From Pseudomonadota bacterium (GTDB taxonomy: Bacteria > Bdellovibrionota > FAC87 > UBA2466), in the NCBI GenBank assembly GCA_043718025.1, contig JAYSWN010000130.1:1-26546 (forward strand): a stretch of DNA of 26,546 bases, read 5' to 3'. A program made the translations under genes and the position numbers. The notes below the pieces were generated by a model. That model had not been told where the DNA came from. It saw only the letters and a program-made list of their open reading frames with translations, and ran no database searches. Below are positions 12,492 to 22,960 of the stretch, one piece after another; position 1 is the first letter of the stretch; every line of letters begins with the position of its first letter.

Positions 12492-13607
12492 TCAAGGCCG
12501 GTGGCTTATCTGCACCATCGAAAAGAAGTATTCAAGGGGGGTGTTCACGGGGGGAAAGCCGTGATTTTTAAGAAACAGATTCGCCGGCTCCATGTCGACA
12601 CGGTGGTAGGTGATCAATTTGCCGGTCAAACGGTCGAAAATGGCCATTTCATTCGTAAGGGTATCGAAGCGGAAGGACAAAAGCTGAGTGGTGCTCTGAC
12701 CATCGCTTTCTCTCTTTTCGGCCCGCGTAAACGTGAGCGCGGTGGGCCGGTCACTCTGCATAAAATCTTCGGCGGCCTTAAGGTAATTTTGCTTCAGTTT
12801 GGCGTACGCCCGTTGCTCGGCGGACGCATCGCCCTTACTCGCCTCCACATCATGAAGGTAATCTTGGCGAAGCCGGATAAACTCTGGGCTGTGGGCGCCA
12901 GCATTTCGTTTTGCCGCCGCCGCTTTATCGGCGGGAGACATCGACGCACCCCGCTCAGGGAAAATACCCAAAACATGTTTGTCGACGTGAGAAACCGCTT
13001 GATTCTCACTCGAAAAACCCACGAAGCCAATTTTTTCGCCGGCCGTAAGCTGGGCAAAACGTTGTGGAGCCTGCCCATATTTTTGCGGTGCCGTTACCAT
13101 TTTGGTGAAGTTGGTAAAAAACTGGCCGGTGGTGGCTAGAGTACCAATGGCCCGGGTGTCGATCGGAAGTTTGATAAACGCCGCCAACTCCCCTTTGCCG
13201 TTGGTGATGAGAAGTTCACCGGTGACCAGGTGCAGTTTAATTCGGGTGCCGTCTGGCAGAGGAGAAGCGTAGGTGAGTGACCGCTCGTCGACCGCATCCG
13301 AAGCAAACTGCCTAAGGCGCTGCTCATAGTCCTTCGGGCCAAAACCTACGGGTAGCGAGCCATCATTGCGCGCATTTTTAGGTGGAAAGAATCTTTTGGC
13401 AAAGTCTACGGGCCAATGGTCATCCCCCCAGGGAGACTCGGCCAAATGAATTTCCCGCACGGGAAATCTAACGCGCAGATGTTCTGGATCATGCAGCGGC
13501 GCAATTGCCGAGAATAGGCAAAGTGCGGCAGTTGCTTTAGTTAATTCAGAACCGAAACCAGAAGCAGAACAAACGACCAGCAAAAGGATAACGAAAACCC
13601 TTTGCAT
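12492..13607 (-). CDS. Secreted protein with tandem RNase-toxin-like domains (paralogue A)
   Basis: GAGGG RBS and signal peptide. C-terminal half reads GFSSENQAVSHVDKH...NYLKAAEDF...FRFDTLTNEMAIFDRLTGKLITYHR. Colinear with 16187..17266. The CDS is secure; the function is inferred. Confidence 0.6.
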   Translation of the reverse strand: MQRVFVILLLVVCSASGFGSELTKATAALCLFSAIAPLHDPEHLRVRFPVREIHLAESPWGDDHWPVDFAKRFFPPKNARNDGSLPVGFGPKDYEQRLRQFASDAVDERSLTYASPLPDGTRIKLHLVTGELLITNGKGELAAFIKLPIDTRAIGTLATTGQFFTNFTKMVTAPQKYGQAPQRFAQLTAGEKIGFVGFSSENQAVSHVDKHVLGIFPERGASMSPADKAAAAKRNAGAHSPEFIRLRQDYLHDVEASKGDASAEQRAYAKLKQNYLKAAEDFMQSDRPTALTFTRAEKRESDGQSTTQLLSFRFDTLTNEMAIFDRLTGKLITYHRVDMEPANLFLKNHGFPPVNTPLEYFFSMVQISHRP

Positions 13608-13648: not shown

Positions 13649-14200
13649 TCAGTTAGCATTCCACTCAACGCACTCATTCACCAGCTGGGTGAAGGGTAAA
13701 CCGGGCTCAAGACCAACGGCCTTTACTGTAGACCAGTAGAATTCAATCTTTTGCGCAATCACCGGAGGAGTTCTCGGATCGGCTAGTAGCCCCTTTACGG
13801 CGACCTCGGTGCTCTTGATTCGCGCCCGTTCGGTGGGATCGGTGCTGGGCAGCAGGGCAAACTCATTAGAAAACGGTTGAATGGTCGTTTCAAGAACTTG
13901 CGGCGTTATCCCACCCGGAGGTAAGGCCCGCTGAAACTCAATTAGGCTCTTATTGATTTCGCTTAACCGGAGCAAAATACCCGCAGTTTGGGCTACCTGT
14001 TTCAGACTCACGCCGGAATGCATAGTGAGGGTTTCTCTTCTCACTTTGTCGGGAAGGTCAGCCACCCCCTTACTTTCGTCAGCCAAAACAACCAGTAGCG
14101 CATTGCAGACCAACCTCTCTTTGGTGGCCAAGGCGTGCGGGCCCGCAGCAATCAAAAAGGCACCTAAAAGCACACGTATCCCAGCGTTCACAACAGGCAT
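13649..14200 (-). CDS. Secreted hypothetical helical protein
   Basis: 183 aa, signal peptide ending HALA, co-oriented 41 bp upstream of paralogue A. No recognisable domain. Confidence 0.65.
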   Translation of the reverse strand: MPVVNAGIRVLLGAFLIAAGPHALATKERLVCNALLVVLADESKGVADLPDKVRRETLTMHSGVSLKQVAQTAGILLRLSEINKSLIEFQRALPPGGITPQVLETTIQPFSNEFALLPSTDPTERARIKSTEVAVKGLLADPRTPPVIAQKIEFYWSTVKAVGLEPGLPFTQLVNECVEWNAN

Positions 14201-14784: not shown

Positions 14785-15125
14785 TAAGGAAACCGCCCAC
14801 CCGACTCGAAGCCTCACGCAAAAAAGAACCTCGGGCGATGACTATAAGACAAGTAAGGGGAACCAAGTGAAATGGGTCGTGGCAAAGTAAGTGGCCCCTC
14901 CACGGTACAGCACCACTCGGCAGCACCAGGATGAAAAGCTAAAATCTTCCCTTAAGTGAAACGCCAAGGCAAAACCCCACGCTCCCCACACATCGCCATT
15001 TCCACCAAATACTATTTGACGCCTTTTTCTATAAAATTGAATGCCGAACTCTGCTCCGAGACGTGGCGGTTTTAACCACCAGAGCAGACGTTAAAGCGCC
15101 CTCCAGGTCACGGATTGATTATTCT

Positions 15126-15152
15126 TCGAGGCGCGGTGAGGGCTGCCGATAG
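15126..15152 (+). promoter_or_regulatory. Putative sigma-28 (FliA)-type promoter of the HNH gene
   Basis: TCGA-N15-GCCGATAG against the consensus TAAA-N15-GCCGATAA, 67 nt before ATG 15220. Confidence 0.45.
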
Positions 15153-15219
15153 GCAAGGGCTTATCGCGGAATGTGGACGTGAAAAAGGCTCTCAAAAAAC
15201 TCATGATACTAATTTGTTC

Positions 15220-16158
15220 ATGACGACCACCGCTCAAATCCTAGACGCAAAAGTAAAACAGTTGGCAAAAACTCTTCTCCACACTGAAGGGTTGGTGCTC
15301 ACCACTCTCATGGAGATGAGCCGAGTCAGGGTCTTTGCGGAGCTAAATTACTCAGGGGTATTTGATTACTGCCTTCGCGCATTGGGCATGAGCAAAGAAC
15401 AGTCTTACTATTTTAAGAAAGTGGCCGCGGTTTCAGTACAGGTACCAGAGCTAAAAACTGCCATCGTTCACGGTGAACTATCGCTTTCATCGGCCCGCCG
15501 CATCGCCCCTATTCTCAATGCGGCAAACCAGGCGGAGTGGATTACCAAAGCCAAGGAGCTGAAGCAGAGTGAGCTTGAAAAGGCGGTGAGTGAAGTCAAT
15601 CCGCAAGCTCATCCTAGAGAGCGGATAAAGCCTGTCGCCAAAAACGTATCGGAGCTTCGTGTAGTCATTGACGATGTCACCGATGGCAACCTCACCATGC
15701 TCAAAGACCTGCTCTCTTCTAAATTAAGACGCCCGGCAACGTTGGCCGAAGTAATTGCTTGGGCAGTTCAAGAGACCAGGGAACGGCATGACCCCGAGGC
15801 TAAGGCCAAGCGGGCGAGAAGAGTTTCCCCAGGAAAACCCGAAAAACAAAATTTGCTTGGCGCTAATCCGGCAATCAACGCTGTGACTACAGCCGGCGTT
15901 ATAGAAGCCGCGCCAAGGCAAAGGGAATCGAACCGGCTGCCAATCCCCGCCGCCATTCGCCACGCCGTTGTGCAACGCCAAGGAGCGCAGTGTTCGTTTG
16001 TTTCGCAAGACTACCGGCGTTGTGAGCAGAAACGTTGGCTCGATTTGCATCATCGCTTAGCGGTGGCACACGGCGGGATGAACCAAATCGAGAATTTAGT
16101 GTTTCTTTGTCACCGGCACCACCGCGCGCTGCATGGAGCGAATCATTCGCCGTCATAA
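15220..16158 (+). CDS. HNH endonuclease with DUF222-like N-terminal region
   Basis: C-terminal RHAVVQRQGAQCSF..RC..LDLHH..AHGGMNQIENLVFLCHRHHRALH. N-terminal LNYSGVFDYC..LGMS..VPEL..AIVHGELSLSSARRIAP helical region. Start set at ATG 15220. Confidence 0.88.
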   Translation: MTTTAQILDAKVKQLAKTLLHTEGLVLTTLMEMSRVRVFAELNYSGVFDYCLRALGMSKEQSYYFKKVAAVSVQVPELKTAIVHGELSLSSARRIAPILNAANQAEWITKAKELKQSELEKAVSEVNPQAHPRERIKPVAKNVSELRVVIDDVTDGNLTMLKDLLSSKLRRPATLAEVIAWAVQETRERHDPEAKAKRARRVSPGKPEKQNLLGANPAINAVTTAGVIEAAPRQRESNRLPIPAAIRHAVVQRQGAQCSFVSQDYRRCEQKRWLDLHHRLAVAHGGMNQIENLVFLCHRHHRALHGANHSPS

Positions 16159-16186: not shown

Positions 16187-17266
16187 CTATTTGTTAGTTG
16201 GGGTCAACTGAGGCAGGGCGAGAAAGTACTCAAACGGCGAATGCGCTGGCGGGAATTGATGATCCGCCAGCGAGCGGTTCGCAATATCCATGTTCAGACG
16301 AAAATACGTGGTTACCTTACCCGATCCGCGATCGATAACGGCCAGTTCGCGAGTGAGCACATCAAAGCGATAGGCCATGACATGTTCGGCCCCGTCGAAT
16401 TGCCGGATCTCTTTACGGGTGTAGGTCAAACTCGTAGCCCGTTCGCTTTTTAGAAATTTTTCGGCCGCTTGCATGTAACTCATTTTTAGTGCGGTATAGG
16501 CTCGCTCTGCACAACCTCTATCTTCTGCACAGTTTTTTATAGCGAGGGCAAAATTTGTTCGTAGAGCCTCGAACTCAGGCGGTCGATTAACGCTCGCGCC
16601 CATGGCAAAGTTGGCCTTGTAGGCGAGCGGCATTTGCCGCACTTCCGGCGCTAAGCCAAGCACATGCTTATCGACATGCACGGCCAAACTGTTCCCGCTG
16701 ATGAAACCTCCAAATTCCATACTTTCTCCCGCACTCAGCCTGGCCACTTTTTCTCCACGGCTAGGCAGCGAAACCGTTTCAACCAGGTGGGAAAACAGAT
16801 GGGCCGTAGAAACATAGGCGGCCACCGATCGCTGGTCCACCGGCAGCCTCAAATACAGCCCCACATGCCCCTGCTTATTGAGAATCAGCATCTCGCCAGT
16901 GGCCAAATGCATTTTGAGCGAAGTGGAGTCAGGCAGTTGTGAAAAGTGGGTAACCGATCGCGCATCGAGGCCGTCTCTGGCAAACGCTCGAAGACTCGCC
17001 TCAAATTCTTTCACGCCAAAACTGATTGGCTGATAGCCATCATTCGAGGGCTTGGGAGAGGGAAAATGATACCTTGCCAGCTCTATCGGACGCTCGCACG
17101 AACCCCAGAGCGTTTGACTCAAAGAAACGGCGCGCGCCGGGAACAAGAGGTGAACCGATTTTGGATCCTGCACTGAGGCGATGGCGGGAAGTTCAAACTG
17201 GCAGGCCAATGCCCCCGAGCAAAATAGAAAGAAGCCCGCAAAAAACGCAAACGCCACCCGTGACAA
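16187..17266 (-). CDS. Secreted protein with tandem RNase-toxin-like domains (paralogue B)
   Basis: GGAGG RBS, TTG start, signal peptide ending ALA|C. C-terminal half reads GFISGNSLAVHVDKHVLG...SYMQAAEKF...YRFDVLTRELAVIDRGSGKVTTYFRL. A 54-aa ungapped block (NDG...LI) shares 30 identities with paralogue A by hand count. Confidence 0.6.
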   Translation of the reverse strand: MSRVAFAFFAGFFLFCSGALACQFELPAIASVQDPKSVHLLFPARAVSLSQTLWGSCERPIELARYHFPSPKPSNDGYQPISFGVKEFEASLRAFARDGLDARSVTHFSQLPDSTSLKMHLATGEMLILNKQGHVGLYLRLPVDQRSVAAYVSTAHLFSHLVETVSLPSRGEKVARLSAGESMEFGGFISGNSLAVHVDKHVLGLAPEVRQMPLAYKANFAMGASVNRPPEFEALRTNFALAIKNCAEDRGCAERAYTALKMSYMQAAEKFLKSERATSLTYTRKEIRQFDGAEHVMAYRFDVLTRELAVIDRGSGKVTTYFRLNMDIANRSLADHQFPPAHSPFEYFLALPQLTPTNK

Positions 17267-17532
17267 ACAACCTCCAAAATCGTCGCTGAAGATCCAAATT
17301 TGTAAGGAAAACCTGTTGGCTTAGTCCTAACAAGTTTCGAGCTTCTTTGACAAGCTGCGCAACAACAAATCTGGATCGGCATCCGTTAACAGCCTGGGCA
17401 AATTTTGGATTTTGCTAGAGCCAACCAACCAAAATAATGGTCATTTCAAACATTCGCGGGTGAAGACAGAAATTAATCATGACGCCCTTAACGCACCATG
17501 CTACCAATTTTTAGGCAACGGGAAAAAGGGGA

Positions 17533-19884
17533 GTGTTGGTGGGGAAAACTATCTGTCTCGTCTTGGGGTTTCTCTTTTTGGTCAGTTCATCATTCGGTGG
17601 TGAAAAAAGGAACGGTTATTCCAGCGGCTATGGAAACCGCAACGGCAATGGCAACGGAAGAGCCAGACCTCCTTTCCCCGCTATGGCTGAAGCAAGGCCA
17701 GTCAATTCAAATCCAGCCTCGACCCACTTGGTCCATCGCTATTTAGTAGAAAAGCTCAAAATAGAAAAGCCTGAGCTATTCGACATGTCTTACAACTTTT
17801 TTGAACTCACGCGCTCACTCGGCGATGACCGAATGAGAAACGCCGAAGCGCTTAAAGAAATGGCCGAAACTTTTTTCGCGCCAGAGTCTGCAGAAAGCCT
17901 GCGCCAAATATTAGAAGCGGCGATGAAGACCGATTACAACAACGCCCTAATTCTCGCCGAAGCGGGCGTCGGCAAAAGCTTTTTGGTAGACCAGATCGCT
18001 GGTCTTTTTTCGTTCGGCATTTTGCCCGACTATCTCGCCAAAGAGATCGCCTATCCCGCCGATCAAAAGTCACCCTATGCAAATATTTTAAGGCAGTTCA
18101 TCAACAACACGCAGGTGGTGAAGATAAATACGGCGCTGCTCATGAAGCACGACGACAAGCCCGGCGAGGCTTGGTCGTCTGAAGAGGTGCGCATGCGTGC
18201 GACGTTAGAAGCGCTGTTTGCTGAAGCGCGCAAAGAGTTTAACCTTGCCGACAAAAGCGGAAAACGCGTTGGACGCCGCACGTTCTTTATGTTCGATGAG
18301 TTCGCCACCCTTCCCCCGTTCGTCAAAGAGTTGCTTAAGACCATTTTGGACGAAACCGGTTTTCAAAATCCTGACGTCGCGCTGGTCAAAAAGCCAGACC
18401 CTGGCTTCTCGGTACTCTGTTTCACCACCCCCGCAGAGTACCGGCGCATATCGGCCGGCGATTCAGCAATCGACCGGCGCTTTAAGCTAATTAAAATTGC
18501 GGAGCCGAATGAAAATTTGGCTTTTCGCATTGTTCGCGCCAAAAGCACCAATGAGTGGGAACCCCTCTACGGCGTCGCTATCAGCGACGAAGCAATATGG
18601 CATCTAATCCACAGCCGCCGTTTCTTAACCACGCCGCCTCTCGCCATGCCCGGCTCGATTCTAGCGGCGGTGAATACCTTAATGACGTGGAAGTTAACCA
18701 ACCCCGGAGAGAGCTCGAACGAAATTACCGTGAAAGACGCGCAACTTTATCTGACCCGGGCGGCCGGGCTGACCGATTTATGGCTTGAGGGGCCCAACGG
18801 CGAACCGCCATTGAGCGGGCTTGAAGAGCGAGCGCTTCAGCACGTAGTGGTTAAAGACCCTTCCCTTCATAAAATTGCCGAACGCTGGAAAGCATTTTCA
18901 CGGTTGGAGCACAACGGGGCGATTCCCGTATTCATCGTTATGGGGCCCACCGGTTCGGGAAAAGACACCCGTTTTGAGGCCTTAAATATGGCGCTATTTG
19001 GCCACCGAGGAAAGCAGTTCAATTTTAGTCTGGCGGGCACCAAGGGCTTCGGCATTGATGCCCTTATATCGGGTCCCCCGCTTGGCAATCATAGTGACGG
19101 AGAGCAGGGTTTGTTAGTACGGGCGTTAGACTCTGGATTGGGCAATAGCGCCGTTGCCTTCAACGAAGTGGCCGACACGCCAAGTGAAGAGCTAGAAAAG
19201 CTAAAGGTACTGGTTGAAAGCGGTGAAGTGCGTCCGAGCGGAATGGATTCGCGGCCGCGCCCCTTACGTTACCCCATCTTCTTAATGGGTCAGTGGGGCG
19301 AAGAGATCTTTGACGGCATGACCGATGCCGAAAAGATGGAGCGCTACCAATCTCTTACTCAAGATGAGATCGAAGGGTTCTTACTCAAGGGAAAAGGCGA
19401 TGGAACCATCGGCGCCGTTCCCCCGGCCCTAATCGAACGCGCAAAGAAATCCGGCGGCATCTATTTCGTACCCCCGATGGTGGTGGCAGATTTTCCGGCC
19501 GTAATCGGCACTTGGCTCCCGGGACTTATCGAAGACCTAAATAAAAATAACGCCATCGAAGTGGTGGTTTCTCCGCAACTGATCAAATTCATCGCCAACA
19601 CGGCGGCCTCAATGGCGCACGGAACGCGCGGGCTGAGTGCGGTCACTTCTGATTTCACAAAGGGCGCTATCTCTCGTTCGATGGACAAAGGTCTACCCAC
19701 AACTCACCTTTCACTCATCCTTGATCACATACGCAGAATCGATGGCCAAGACTTCATCGTGGTGCAGCACGTAGAGAGTGGGTTGTCTTATCAATTCACT
19801 CCCCAAGAGCTCTATCGGCATAAGTTTTCGTGCGGCGGACAGCTCGGTGAAATGGGCCAACCCGCGGCACTGGCTGCCAAATAA
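17533..19884 (+). CDS. ClpA/ClpB-like double AAA+ ATPase with an N-terminal signal peptide
   Basis: NBD1: AEAGVGKS, FMFDEF, TTPAEYRR, DSAIDRRF, EP. NBD2: MGPTGSGKD, LISGPP, AFNEV, PALIER, HGTRGL. N-terminus KTICLVLGFLFLVSSSFG. Exact start among 17533/17536/17539 is uncertain. Confidence 0.82.
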   Translation: MLVGKTICLVLGFLFLVSSSFGGEKRNGYSSGYGNRNGNGNGRARPPFPAMAEARPVNSNPASTHLVHRYLVEKLKIEKPELFDMSYNFFELTRSLGDDRMRNAEALKEMAETFFAPESAESLRQILEAAMKTDYNNALILAEAGVGKSFLVDQIAGLFSFGILPDYLAKEIAYPADQKSPYANILRQFINNTQVVKINTALLMKHDDKPGEAWSSEEVRMRATLEALFAEARKEFNLADKSGKRVGRRTFFMFDEFATLPPFVKELLKTILDETGFQNPDVALVKKPDPGFSVLCFTTPAEYRRISAGDSAIDRRFKLIKIAEPNENLAFRIVRAKSTNEWEPLYGVAISDEAIWHLIHSRRFLTTPPLAMPGSILAAVNTLMTWKLTNPGESSNEITVKDAQLYLTRAAGLTDLWLEGPNGEPPLSGLEERALQHVVVKDPSLHKIAERWKAFSRLEHNGAIPVFIVMGPTGSGKDTRFEALNMALFGHRGKQFNFSLAGTKGFGIDALISGPPLGNHSDGEQGLLVRALDSGLGNSAVAFNEVADTPSEELEKLKVLVESGEVRPSGMDSRPRPLRYPIFLMGQWGEEIFDGMTDAEKMERYQSLTQDEIEGFLLKGKGDGTIGAVPPALIERAKKSGGIYFVPPMVVADFPAVIGTWLPGLIEDLNKNNAIEVVVSPQLIKFIANTAASMAHGTRGLSAVTSDFTKGAISRSMDKGLPTTHLSLILDHIRRIDGQDFIVVQHVESGLSYQFTPQELYRHKFSCGGQLGEMGQPAALAAK

Positions 19885-19957: not shown

Positions 19958-21661
19958 ATGAAATTGGCCTTTGTCTTATTTTTATCCGTAGCCCTCGCTA
20001 TTTTCGGGGCCCCTTACGCTGTTGCCGCCCCCCTTCGTTTGGTGGTGCAGTCGCGACAAATTCAACCCGACGAAGAGCAACTAAAACAGTGGTTAGAAAA
20101 TTTTTGGGTCTCCACACCCGAGGGGCAAGAGATCTGGGCATTTCGTAATGAATCTGATGCCGAAGACATCTTTCGTAGTTCGGAGATTCCGTTCTTACTC
20201 CAACAGCAATTGTTAGCCTCGCACCGAAGCCTAACCGAAGAACAGATCATGCGCTTTGGCTGGCAGCACACCTACCGTGCACGCCACCTTTTGATCCTGA
20301 CGCCGTGGCTTCGCGATCAAATTCCCCAAACTCTCAGTCAGCGTTATTTTAACTACGAGCGCAGCGAGGTGAAATCGAATAACTACGCCACCGTTGAAGT
20401 GGCGAGTGACGAAGGGCCCGCAGCCTTTTTGCAAAGAGAAAAACTTCATCTCTCGCCGCAAGAATTTACACGGTTAAACAATTCTCTGATGACACTTGCA
20501 AATAAAACTTTTGCCGTCATCACACCTTACTCTTGGAAAAGTCTTCCGGCCAAGATTCGTTCAGACTTTTTGGCGGCTAAACTACGGCCTTCGTCACTTT
20601 TGCGGATAGGCTTGGAAGTCAGCCTAGTCGTTAGCGCCAATGACAGACCTAATGAAATAGCGGCCCAGCTCAGCCCTTCGGGCACCTACGCGGCGGCCCT
20701 CGAAGCTGACATCAAGCGCCACCAGCGGCCCGAACACGAAGTGCAAATTCCCCTGCAAGAGCTCTTACCCGAGGTGGTTCGCCGTTGGGTAAGTCGTTAC
20801 TTCGATGGTTACGGCCCCAACTGTTTTGGTTTAACCAAGGCCTTTTCGTTACTTACCCCCGAAGTAGAAGTGGTTGCCGATGTGGAGAGCTTAACCGGCG
20901 CCCTGAAAGAAGAGGGATTTGTCGGGGTTGAAAAAGAGTCCCCCCCGGAATGGGGCGATGTACTGATTTATGAAAGTAGCAGCGGAACCGGAATTCACTC
21001 CGCGATCTATTTAACGCAGAACATTTTACTTAGCCGAAATGGATTTTCAAAAACTTATCCCACGGTGATGCAGGAACAAAAAGTGGTCGAAGCCGGATAC
21101 TTCGGATCCGAAAAATTTCGCATGCGCGTTTACCGCAGAGACTCAGCGCTAAAGGCAAAGCCGTACGACCCCCTTTATTTCACCGAGCCGGCCCATGAGT
21201 TCATTCAATTGGGAATTCATCCGCACTCTTTTTTAGTGACCCAGCGCCGTATTCTACGAAGCTTCTTTACAAAACCGCTGTCCCGCTTGGCCGAAGACGA
21301 ATTAAGACGATACGCCGCTGATCCTCGTTTCGAAGCAAATTCGGCGCTGGCCCACACCGTACTGCGCTTTCAAGCCGACGTTGGGCGCTTTCGAGGCGTT
21401 TGCCAGTCCATCGGCTTTTTTCCTCTCTATGGCTCTATGCGGGGAAATAGGGACGCCTTAGGACGACTCAATCAAAAAGCACAGCTTGATCCAATCGAGA
21501 AAGAGTTTGTCGAATGGGTTAGTGCAACCTGGCCGTACGCTTACCTTGGTCCAGTGGGGGAACTTCGACGACGGCACTACCCATTGGCGCCGGCGCCAAA
21601 TTTTTGTTTCAAGACCCTACAGTCTGCCTGGGTCTGGATGTCGCTGCACGCACCGCTTTAA
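19958..21661 (+). CDS. Secreted protein with a central NlpC/P60-like (papain-fold) domain
   Basis: Signal peptide ending AVA. GPNCF...WGDVLIY...IHSAIYL..LLSRNG gives the Cys / GD-hydrophobic / His order of this fold. Confidence 0.65.
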   Translation: MKLAFVLFLSVALAIFGAPYAVAAPLRLVVQSRQIQPDEEQLKQWLENFWVSTPEGQEIWAFRNESDAEDIFRSSEIPFLLQQQLLASHRSLTEEQIMRFGWQHTYRARHLLILTPWLRDQIPQTLSQRYFNYERSEVKSNNYATVEVASDEGPAAFLQREKLHLSPQEFTRLNNSLMTLANKTFAVITPYSWKSLPAKIRSDFLAAKLRPSSLLRIGLEVSLVVSANDRPNEIAAQLSPSGTYAAALEADIKRHQRPEHEVQIPLQELLPEVVRRWVSRYFDGYGPNCFGLTKAFSLLTPEVEVVADVESLTGALKEEGFVGVEKESPPEWGDVLIYESSSGTGIHSAIYLTQNILLSRNGFSKTYPTVMQEQKVVEAGYFGSEKFRMRVYRRDSALKAKPYDPLYFTEPAHEFIQLGIHPHSFLVTQRRILRSFFTKPLSRLAEDELRRYAADPRFEANSALAHTVLRFQADVGRFRGVCQSIGFFPLYGSMRGNRDALGRLNQKAQLDPIEKEFVEWVSATWPYAYLGPVGELRRRHYPLAPAPNFCFKTLQSAWVWMSLHAPL

Positions 21662-21730
21662 CTATTTGATTGAAACCCCTTAATTTTACGATTAACTCTC
21701 TCTGCAATTTTATAATTGAGGGATCTTTCA

Positions 21731-22897
21731 ATGCCTATTCGACCACAGCACTTTTTTCTAAGCCTAGCGTTGCTGACCTCTTCGGTTTTTGCCGCAGATA
21801 GCAGTTCAAGTTCGGCCGAACGTAAAACAAACGCTCTACCGGCCGTTCGCACCACTAAAATTTTCGATGCCGGCTTTACGCCTGAACCCGCAAAAAACCC
21901 GGCGATCAGTGTTCACACCCTTTTATTGGGCCGCGTTGGCCGTGCCGGAACTCGTTTAGATACCGGCGCCGCAATCACTAACGGCGCTAGCGTTCAAGAC
22001 TTGGCCGTGCAGATGTCGGGCGAGCTCGACGGAACCTTCGCGGGCACCGTGACGTTGGGTAATTTTGCCAACACCACGAGCAGTCAGGATTTTGGCTTAA
22101 CGACAACGAGCCTCATTCGCGAAGCGTTCGCTAAAACCATTTCGTTGCCGGTAGTCAGTTTTAAAGCTGGCCAGTTTTTGGCCAACTTTGGCAAAAACAA
22201 TCGTATCTACCCGCATGCTCAGCCCATGATCGATCAGCCTTTGATCGTGAATGAGCTGTTCGGCGCCAACGGATTTCGATCGGCGGGCGTGTCGATGGAA
22301 CTGTTAATTCCCACCACCTGGTTCTTTGATATCGACGTGGCGCTGCTAAGCGGCAACATTGCCGGCCCTTACTCAGCCCCCTCGGATAGCGACGTGGTTG
22401 GTGTCTTCCGAATGGAACATGAATTTTCTCTGAGCCAAGAGACCAACTTTGGCTTTGGCGTTTCCGGATCTTTGGGGCGTAATTCGACCACCCGGGATAG
22501 TGCGTACCTTGGAGTTGATATGAGCCTTAAATACGCGTTGCCCGGCGGCTTTGGGTTCGCCTGGTTTAACGAAATGATTCACACGACCGCTGGCCGCACG
22601 ACTGGCACAGGGTTCGGGGGGGGACTTAATTCCGGAACTACCGGTTTTTACTCCAACCCCATGTTCCGCTTTGCTCCTAAGTTCTGGGCGGGATTGCGGT
22701 TTGACTTCATTACGCGCGATACCGGAGCCGTTACCTCAACCCTCGCCGAAAACGTGATGGTAGCTTGGGTCGTGGGGCCAAGTTCCACCCTCCGCTTTCA
22801 AGGCGGCTTTCAGCAGCCTGGTTCTGGTCCTGGACTTTGGACATTTATGGCGCAGTACAACATGACGATCGGATCTCATCCGGCCCACGCGTTGTAA
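21731..22897 (+). CDS. Outer-membrane beta-barrel, metal (Zn)-uptake-associated type
   Basis: Signal peptide, NPAISV, IREAFAKT, KAGQFLANFGKNN..YPH..PMIDQPL...FG and C-terminal IGSHPAHAL. Start at ATG 21731 with a GAGGG RBS. Confidence 0.65.
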   Translation: MPIRPQHFFLSLALLTSSVFAADSSSSSAERKTNALPAVRTTKIFDAGFTPEPAKNPAISVHTLLLGRVGRAGTRLDTGAAITNGASVQDLAVQMSGELDGTFAGTVTLGNFANTTSSQDFGLTTTSLIREAFAKTISLPVVSFKAGQFLANFGKNNRIYPHAQPMIDQPLIVNELFGANGFRSAGVSMELLIPTTWFFDIDVALLSGNIAGPYSAPSDSDVVGVFRMEHEFSLSQETNFGFGVSGSLGRNSTTRDSAYLGVDMSLKYALPGGFGFAWFNEMIHTTAGRTTGTGFGGGLNSGTTGFYSNPMFRFAPKFWAGLRFDFITRDTGAVTSTLAENVMVAWVVGPSSTLRFQGGFQQPGSGPGLWTFMAQYNMTIGSHPAHAL

Positions 22898-22923
22898 AAA
22901 GTTAGAAATTTAGTCGTTTAAGG

Positions 22924-22960
22924 GCCCCCGGGTTGATTTGAACCCGGGGGCTTTTTTTTT
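22924..22960 (+). terminator. Intrinsic terminator
   Basis: GCCCCCGGGTT-GATTTG-AACCCGGGGGC followed by T9, 26 nt after the stop codon. Confidence 0.93.

Follow-up and report, generated by a model that had tools for sequence, protein, structure and literature searches.

In bacteria, Hsp100 motors are known to be cytoplasmic, and the periplasm is regarded as free of ATP. ClpV, which occurs in type VI clusters, is likewise cytoplasmic and has an N-domain. Here we analyzed a 26,546-nucleotide stretch of a Bdellovibrionota genome (contig JAYSWN010000130.1 of GenBank assembly GCA_043718025.1; the entire stretch is hereafter called the window), in which sequence search, structure model and profile alignment identified a gene for a diverged double AAA+ protein of the class I Clp/Hsp100 fold (781 amino acids; 17539..19884, + strand). 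This Clp-like protein belongs, by its sequence, to a small conserved Bdellovibrionota group of exported-type Clp ATPases, of which no description was found in the literature. Neither a signal-peptide-bearing bacterial Clp nor the C-terminal cysteine tag considered below was described in the literature searched, i.e., the main texts of mostly open-access papers, nor are exported Clps or the tag described in the accessible parts of PMC12419801, PMC13689555 and bioRxiv 10.1101/2023.11.21.568195. Because the family has retained a terminal Cys motif along with its predicted export signal, its members likely work outside their own cytoplasm, and probably within prey, where ATP would be at hand.

A signal-peptide-like hydrophobic N-terminus, defined heuristically as a 10-residue window with a mean hydropathy >=2.2 within the first 40 residues, was found in 23 of 26 family sequences, compared with 0 of 114 canonical Clp/ClpV proteins. 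Among the 26 are the query itself and two pairs of near-duplicates; six of the starts were chosen by eye. Of the three sequences that fall short, one is a 5'-partial entry with a full-length cluster mate that passes, and the other two start just before A-L-A. The hydrophobic h-regions of the family are short, come after a basic n-region and close with cleavage motifs of small residues (-3/-1). In the window, the predicted signal peptide of the Sec/signal peptidase I type (17539..17598, +; heuristic call, cleavage site by eye) consists of a basic n-region, an h-region of about 11 residues and an S-F-G c-region. The preliminary description of this DNA, made from the letters alone, had proposed an export signal in place of the Clp N-domain, and the conservation of the leader supports that proposal; the family itself is present in 12 of 301 Bdellovibrionota genomes. 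The sequence features predict that the Clp-like protein is very probably exported and its leader cleaved.

The open frame spans 17533-19884 (+), with three near-adjacent candidate starts at its 5' end and an N-terminus that reads as Lys, hydrophobic core and SFG, followed by an Asn/Gly linker. The GTG at 17539, from which residue numbers are counted here, is judged from the sequence to be most likely the true start; a Shine-Dalgarno-like GGGGAG (17528..17533, +) lies 5 nucleotides upstream of it, and the collection protein P0002 (781 amino acids) also begins there. ATG 17683 was rejected as a start, for the stretch upstream is pyrimidine-rich and lacks a purine-rich site and the Met is not conserved in the family. 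The possibility raised earlier that a downstream Met such as this one would refute export is not borne out, as a Met between leader and core is lacking from 18 of 24 scored members, a count that includes one member with a mis-set core boundary.

Two tandem Clp-type AAA+ modules were confirmed by phmmer, Foldseek, profile alignment and the structure model. The best PDB sequence match was ClpB 1qvr (phmmer, E 9.5e-10), profile-profile comparison with canonical Clps gave a probability of 99.9 over 533 columns, and Foldseek retrieved ClpC, ClpB and ClpA from E 8.7e-27 with identities of 15-17%. The AlphaFold2 model has a mean predicted local distance difference test score of 82.4, with residues 1-60 and 763-781 below 50. 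The protein gave no match to the Clp_N family at E<=0.1, and residues 1-60 are predicted to be disordered; the place of the N-domain is taken by a low-complexity linker, predicted to be disordered (17599..17721, +; alignment, Pfam search, model), which is conserved across the family in neither length nor sequence. A gap stands at the place of the M-domain in the profile alignment to canonical Clps, and no IGF/L ClpP-docking loop follows sensor 1 of the second module (D2), where GQWGE (19288-19302, +) and then short helices are found. The three absences reported in the preliminary description, of the Clp N-domain, the long ClpB M-domain and the IGF loop, were thus reproduced.

The protein scored far below every Clp equivalog cut-off. 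Its best NCBIfam match, ClpV TIGR03345, reached 62.6 bits vs. the cut-off of 885 bits, while TIGR02639 (ClpA) and TIGR03346 (ClpB) gave 42.8 and 31.3 bits vs. cut-offs of 993 and 1232 bits, respectively. In a quick tree of 14 family rows and 30 others, a long branch with full support sets the family apart, and the family is not grouped with ClpV; its parent Clp subfamily is not resolved by this tree, in which long branches meet. By these sequence comparisons the protein is a remote class I Clp that falls outside ClpA/C, ClpB and ClpV by the tests defining them, and it is best classified within a separate Clp-derived family. Its Atlas matches were generic AAA clusters. A search for longer, fused forms of the family among 7980 candidates returned just one unrelated ClpC fusion, which is weak evidence. 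A phage origin was considered and rejected, since the viral proteins that match best in fold, which are ClpA-like and come from phages, have 15-17% identity and are no closer than cellular ones.

Motifs were counted over 25 aligned family rows. The machinery of the first module (D1; 17722..18774, +; profile alignment and the 25-row motif alignment) is intact, and no M-domain follows it. The G-x-G-K of Walker A (17956-17979, +) with Ser/Thr at K+1, the catalytic Glu of Walker B (18286-18300, +), the TT of sensor 1 (18424-18429, +) and the RR of the arginine finger (18475-18480, +) are each found in 25/25 rows. Because D1 Lys, the catalytic Glu, TT and RR are invariant and K+1 is always Ser or Thr, nucleotide handling is judged to be under selection. 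The D1 pore loop (18163-18174, +) carries an aromatic residue; at about the equivalent place W, F, Y or H is found in 22/25 rows and Ala in the remaining 3. The second D1 pore loop is deleted in the profile alignment.

The second module (D2; 18796..19818, +; profile alignment, motif alignment and substitution ratios) is non-canonical. Although Lys475, Glu543, Arg634 (19438-19440, +) and the sensor-2 Arg697 (19627-19629, +) are present in 25/25 rows, the residue after the Walker A Lys (GK-D; 18943-18969, +) is Asp in 22/25 rows, and in those same 22 the Walker B Asp is replaced by Asn (N-E; 19153-19167, +). The two positions co-vary exactly, with 22 D/N, 2 N/D and 1 S/D pairs, so that there is always one acid and never two; a Fisher test overstates this co-variation, because the rows are related. 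GYVG is absent from 25/25 rows, with no Tyr, and a GPP[LVI]GNH-type sequence stands in its place (GPPLGNH in the window; 19072-19092, +) that is partly or wholly deleted in several members. Thus, the earlier claim that both modules align motif by motif with ClpA/ClpB stands for D1 and not for D2, which has GK-D/N-E and no GYVG. A rough count for one pair of close relatives (L007 vs. L011) gave a ratio of nonsynonymous to synonymous differences per site (pN/pS) of ~0.02 over 364 codons for D2 and ~0.05 over 406 codons for the N-terminus and D1. From these sequences, D2 is judged not to be decaying and to be under strong purifying selection. It is likelier that D1 serves as the motor and D2 as a nucleotide-binding or non-canonical site, as far as the motifs can tell. 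Divergent members (P0141, encoded by L025:688-3717, as well as L010 and L024) have D2 motifs of the GKN/DE or GKS/DE kind, which may represent intermediates on the way to GKD/NE; P0141 also has a charged N-terminal extension of ~270 amino acids.

The sole Cys conserved across the family lies near the C-terminus. It is found in 24/25 rows, the 25th ending at a contig end, and all 24 complete members have a hydrophobic residue at Cys +4, which is Leu in 17. The Cys sits 5-19 residues from the C-terminus, or 68 in one member with a low-complexity extension. In the window this Cys-x-x-x-hydrophobic motif reads CGGQL (19831..19845, +), and the tail is modeled, with low confidence, as a short helix. 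By comparison, C-x-x-x-[LF] was found in the last 70 residues of 9/114 Clp/ClpV controls. A lipoprotein reading of the motif was ruled out for the family, as the Cys is C-terminal.

Similar tags were then counted genome-wide after canonical lipoboxes had been filtered out. Of 373 predicted exported proteins of genome G000, to which the window belongs, 36 have the tag close to the mature N-terminus, where internal windows predict 5.5, and 25 have it at the C-terminus vs. 7.6 expected. The same enrichment was seen in a looser exported set and none in 1397 leaderless proteins. A permissive leader heuristic (1422/3719 genes) gave little tag signal, and stricter exported sets were used for the counts. 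In 400 kb of G090, a genome from another family, the tag occurred in 6 and 8 of 41 exported proteins vs. 1.1 and 1.2 expected; among the 129 proteins without a leader in this stretch of G090, the counts were 8 (4.6 expected) and 5 (6.4 expected), with no clear enrichment. In a rule-defined set, 7/61 tagged proteins carried domains that need ATP or acetyl-CoA, compared with 0/40 random untagged exported proteins (Fisher p 0.04), the latter being ordinary proteins of the envelope, e.g., transglycosylases, secretins and binding proteins. Twelve of 60 hand-picked proteins with a leader and a terminal Cys have domains dependent on nucleotides or on cofactors of the cytoplasm, namely 2 SF2 helicases, 2 Clp proteins, 3 ATP-grasp proteins, 2 GNATs, a pyruvate kinase-like protein, a methyltransferase and a NUDIX protein. 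The same architecture of leader and tag is also found on trypsin, patatin and alpha/beta-hydrolase proteins. Because the tagged enzymes need DNA, acetyl-CoA and S-adenosylmethionine (SAM) besides ATP, they would need a whole cytoplasm, and not ATP alone.

The family is sharply delimited. The first search gave 201 matches among 7996 candidates, 15 of which besides the query had E <= 4e-133 and 37-59% identity, and the next match followed at E 6e-12. A profile search added two members, a cluster look-up a few near-copies and the genome collection 12 strong loci of 14, L013 and L014 being left out as short P-loop matches. Identity across the family is 25-59%. The member records are labeled Bdellovibrionota, Bacteriovoracaceae, Pseudobdellovibrionaceae, Deltaproteobacteria or Proteobacteria; one record (L004, genome G303) is labeled candidate division WWE3 and is probably mislabeled or mixed. 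Within the phylum of the window, the 12 family-bearing genomes belong to 5 families and have one copy each, which in one genome is in two parts interrupted by N. In the window's own family, 5 of 34 genomes carry the Clp-like gene. This patchy range fits an accessory gene. For housekeeping, genome G000 retains ClpB-like and ClpA-like proteins with normal N-termini, and its single ClpP is leaderless and adjoins a clpX-like gene, on which grounds an exported ClpP partner was rejected. A TLC-family nucleotide carrier was matched in 2 of the 12 family-bearing genomes, in 34/301 overall and, at 92% completeness, not in G000; a link with such a carrier was rejected, as the carrier is not co-distributed with the Clp-like family.

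The reading that we put forward, with slightly less than an even chance of being correct, is that the protein is an exported ATP-dependent ring acting, on whatever substrate, in a prey-derived compartment that contains ATP. Sec would export the protein and its leader would be cleaved; a second step would recognize the terminal Cys tag; and delivery would proceed beyond the predator periplasm, e.g., by a type II or Tad-type secretin, to the prey cytoplasm or to breached prey contents. Genome G000 has 5 secretins. Given export, passage beyond the predator's own periplasm is rated as a little more probable than the contrary. The protein would likely form a hexameric ring in which D1 would hydrolyze ATP and D2 would mainly bind nucleotide or hydrolyze it via the swapped Asp/Asn pair. 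The intact D1 ring would grip and remodel prey proteins, with ClpP not involved; given delivery, the chances are evenly balanced that unfolding or dismantling prey proteins without ClpP is its job. Because the family keeps both the leader and the ATP-handling residues, ATP would have to be reached outside the own cytoplasm, and prey is favored over the predator periplasm because the tagged enzymes need DNA, acetyl-CoA and SAM and the carriers do not track the family. In the accessible parts of earlier papers, Sec secretion of degradative enzymes into the cytoplasm of the prey has been proposed for Bdellovibrio bacteriovorus (PMC2797640), B. exovorus is modeled as gaining access to the prey cytoplasm, and type IV pili (T4P), Tad and junctions are discussed as means of prey access with unresolved mechanisms (PMC12428579), while secretion in B. 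bacteriovorus is called largely unexplored (PMC12622784).

A wider proposal, which at present is doubtful, is a two-step effector route of Bdellovibrionota in which a Sec leader and a terminal Cys-x-x-x-Leu tag would take cytoplasm-type enzymes to the prey cytoplasm, and in which this family would be an injected Hsp100 motor with a new Asp/Asn-swapped P-loop variant. Its cargo would include Clp ATPases, helicases, ATP-grasp ligases and acetyltransferases, in a set that would be large and lineage-specific, and a carrier could possibly hold the single Cys by a disulfide, reduction of which would release the cargo. Such a tag-directed delivery route, if real, would be categorically new.

A number of observations weigh against action of the ring in prey. 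The predatory lifestyle of this uncultured lineage is assumed from its phylum, and no route across the prey membrane was identified. No Pfam match was obtained for 42/60 of the hand-picked tagged proteins, and the contrast in cofactor use between tagged and untagged proteins rests on 7 proteins. All cleavage sites were set by eye, and leaders were called heuristically. In E. coli, Sec export is hindered when the mature protein begins with a basic stretch, and the first 18 mature residues of the family have a mean net charge of +1.1, compared with -0.15 for other AxA leaders of G000; the charge is >=+2 in 11/24 members vs. 46/260 of those other leaders. The basic residues that follow the leader in about half of the members would fit an uncleaved or inverted anchor, or an unused leader, that leaves the ATPase on the cytoplasmic side of the inner membrane, as in FtsH. 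Such a topology would remove the ATP problem, and the collection entries P0009 and P0011 start inside the leader; however, these two entries retain A-L-A motifs, which fits short start calls, the h-regions are short and lie between a basic n-region and cleavage motifs with small residues, 13/24 members have an early mature charge <=+1, and trypsin, patatin and alpha/beta-hydrolase proteins share the architecture of leader and tag. We therefore consider an anchor improbable. With regard to motor activity, the canonical Ser/Thr-Asp pair is absent from D2 in 24/25 rows, and the first Walker B acid of D1 varies (Asp in 14, Glu in 10 and Asn in 1 of 25 rows). According to the accessible part of PMC9599734, P-loop NTPases strictly conserve this pair and its loss stops hydrolysis, not binding, as does the Walker B Asp-to-Asn change in other enzymes; in HSP101, D2 is the threading ring (PMC7355975, accessible part). 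Loss of both the Ser/Thr-Asp pair and the pore tyrosine from D2 makes a strong threading motor of the ClpA type doubtful, and motor activity may be weak, judging from the motifs, because that pair is lost from the ring that threads in HSP101 and the D1 Walker B acid is variable.

The same features could also belong to an exported but largely non-motor protein, i.e., a nucleotide-binding scaffold, a sensor, an ATP sink or a poison subunit in prey Clp rings. D2 without GYVG in any row and with its replacement loop partly or wholly deleted in several members, the deleted second D1 pore loop, and the lack of both a substrate-binding N-domain and a ClpP loop would all be expected of such a protein, as would binding without hydrolysis after a Walker B Asp-to-Asn change (PMC9599734, accessible part). 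It is nevertheless quite unlikely, for neither ring shows any variation in the catalytic Glu, arginine fingers or sensor-2 Arg, the exact co-variation of K+1 and Walker B suggests a working coupled site, and mixed rings with prey Clps look unlikely at ~20% identity to canonical Clps. A chaperone or remodeler of the predator's own periplasm, with ATP passing through from prey or via a nucleotide carrier, is unlikely as well. A plain Sec leader does end in the periplasm, a pyruvate-kinase-like protein with leader and tag is present in G000, and B. bacteriovorus 109J is said, going by the title of a 1986 paper by Ruby and McCabe, to have an ATP transport system. Against this stand the carrier distribution given above, including its lack in G000, and the finding that no carrier gene recurs beside the Clp-like gene among the matches listed; moreover, the pyruvate-kinase-like protein occurs in 1/301 genomes at E<=1e-60, and the tagged helicases, GNATs and methyltransferase also need DNA, acetyl-CoA or SAM. 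The preliminary description had, in addition, suggested an unfoldase or translocase for the neighboring secreted proteins. No gene family recurs beside the Clp-like gene in the 14 homologue loci compared, among the matches listed and two close-relative pairs aside (L007-L008 were covered in part), and that suggestion is thus not supported. A dedicated translocase or recycling ATPase of a secretion machine or of those neighbors, resembling ClpV or HSP101/PTEX, would fit with ClpV as the best NCBIfam match, dominating the weak matches, with four leader-bearing neighbors and with no terminator-like site flagged before the next gene. It is nonetheless very improbable, as 62.6 bits is far under the cut-off, the family does not group with ClpV in the quick tree, G000 (92% complete) has no match to the type VI sheath gene VipB, and both an N-domain and, among the matches listed, a conserved neighbor are lacking. 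A dedicated membrane-channel partner, if there is one, may be encoded at an unlinked site.

In the window, four genes neighboring the Clp-like gene encode leader-bearing proteins. The next gene (19958-21661, +; 567 amino acids), with no terminator-like site flagged in between, encodes a leader-bearing protein with CFKTL as its C-terminal motif; around residues 290-350, a Cys and a His motif look papain/NlpC-P60-like by eye, and its Atlas neighbors are unnamed Bdellovibrionota and Verrucomicrobiota clusters that give just a weak NlpC/P60 lead. It is followed by a gene for a leader-bearing protein that looks by eye like an outer-membrane beta-barrel (21716-22897, +) and a strong terminator-like hairpin (22920-22955). 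The genes at 16187-17266 (-) and 12492-13607 (-) encode paralogous leader-bearing proteins (40% identity over 344 amino acids), each with a Cys near the mature N-terminus and without a Pfam or NCBIfam match, and an HNH-domain gene lies between them (15115-16158, +). The 183-residue product of 13649-14200 (-) has a leader followed by CNALL and is likely tagged; it has no credible Pfam match.

Genome G000 encodes at least three further leader-bearing Clp-like proteins (on C29, C36 and C232, the last at C232:17703) and a trypsin fusion whose start was not resolved. The C29 protein (G000:C29:21523-23643, +; L034) has a leader with a Cys tag directly after it and is near-canonical in both rings; it scores 687 bits with TIGR03346, below the cut-off, and its IGF region contains an RLG loop. 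Its grouping with ClpC-like proteins suggests that Clp export arose more than once. The C36 protein (G000:C36:1451-6115, +; L051) of 1555 amino acids has a leader, several AAA+ modules of Clp type and, at its C-terminus, a peptidase domain of the M41 (FtsH) type and a Cys tag, and its domains make it a possible exported one-chain ATP-dependent protease. Six co-directional genes in G000:C232:13151-24494 (+) encode a trypsin/P-loop fusion, a VWA-like protein, the leader-bearing Clp-like ATPase and three more leader-bearing proteins. A leader and Cys tag are also found on the pyruvate-kinase-like protein (G000:C225:12104-13720, -; L039), which lacks close relatives at E<=1e-60 in the 300 other genomes, and on two SF2 (ResIII-like) helicases of ~1200 amino acids (G000:C216:5245-8889, +, and C38:3610-7206, +).

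How Bdellovibrionota enzymes are delivered to the prey cytoplasm is an open question in current reviews, as far as the accessible parts of PMC12428579 and PMC12622784 go, and the cysteine tag provides a one-residue handle for testing delivery and a rule by which candidate cargo can be chosen. The Asp of Walker A and the Asn of Walker B, which co-vary, offer a natural test of the catalytic Ser/Thr-Asp pair that has been proposed to be universal in P-loop NTPases (PMC9599734, accessible part).

Compared with ClpA, ClpC and ClpB/Hsp104 (PDB 9gi1, 7abr, 6qs4 and 1qvr; TIGR02639 and TIGR03346), the family has the same tandem AAA+ fold, the same Walker A/B, sensor 1 and arginine finger in D1, and the same Lys, Glu, arginine finger and sensor 2 in D2. 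It differs from them in that identity is 15-20%, a leader replaces the N-domain and there is neither an M-domain nor an IGF/L loop; where they have GK-T/D-E and GYVG in D2, the family has GK-D/N-E and GPPLGNH, as well as an invariant terminal Cys and a long-branch clade of its own. With ClpV/TssH (TIGR03345), it shares a class I Clp scaffold without a ClpP loop and the best NCBIfam score, but here there is no N-domain, no VipB match in G000 and, among the matches listed, no conserved gene context. The torsins and mitochondrial CLPB/SKD3, going by the accessible parts of their descriptions, are likewise Clp-related AAA+ proteins targeted out of the cytosol; in contrast to this family, they are eukaryotic and reside in compartments known to hold ATP. 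Both have a single AAA+ module. The nearest functional precedent, by analogy, is HSP101 of Plasmodium, which carries a signal peptide. Like the family, whose export is predicted, HSP101/ClpB2 of PTEX is a class I Hsp100 outside its maker's cytoplasm, at the parasite-host interface; unlike the family, in which none of these features was seen, it keeps the N-domain, M-domain, canonical nucleotide-binding domains and pore tyrosines and docks PTEX150/EXP2 (PMC7355975, accessible part). Closer to home, the C29, C36 and C232 Clp-like proteins of G000 also have a leader in place of the N-domain, and the first two are Cys-tagged as well; they represent separate lineages, C29 being ClpC-like, C36 fused to M41 and C232 in an operon with a trypsin and a VWA-like gene, whereas the family described here stands alone, with its Asp/Asn swap in D2.

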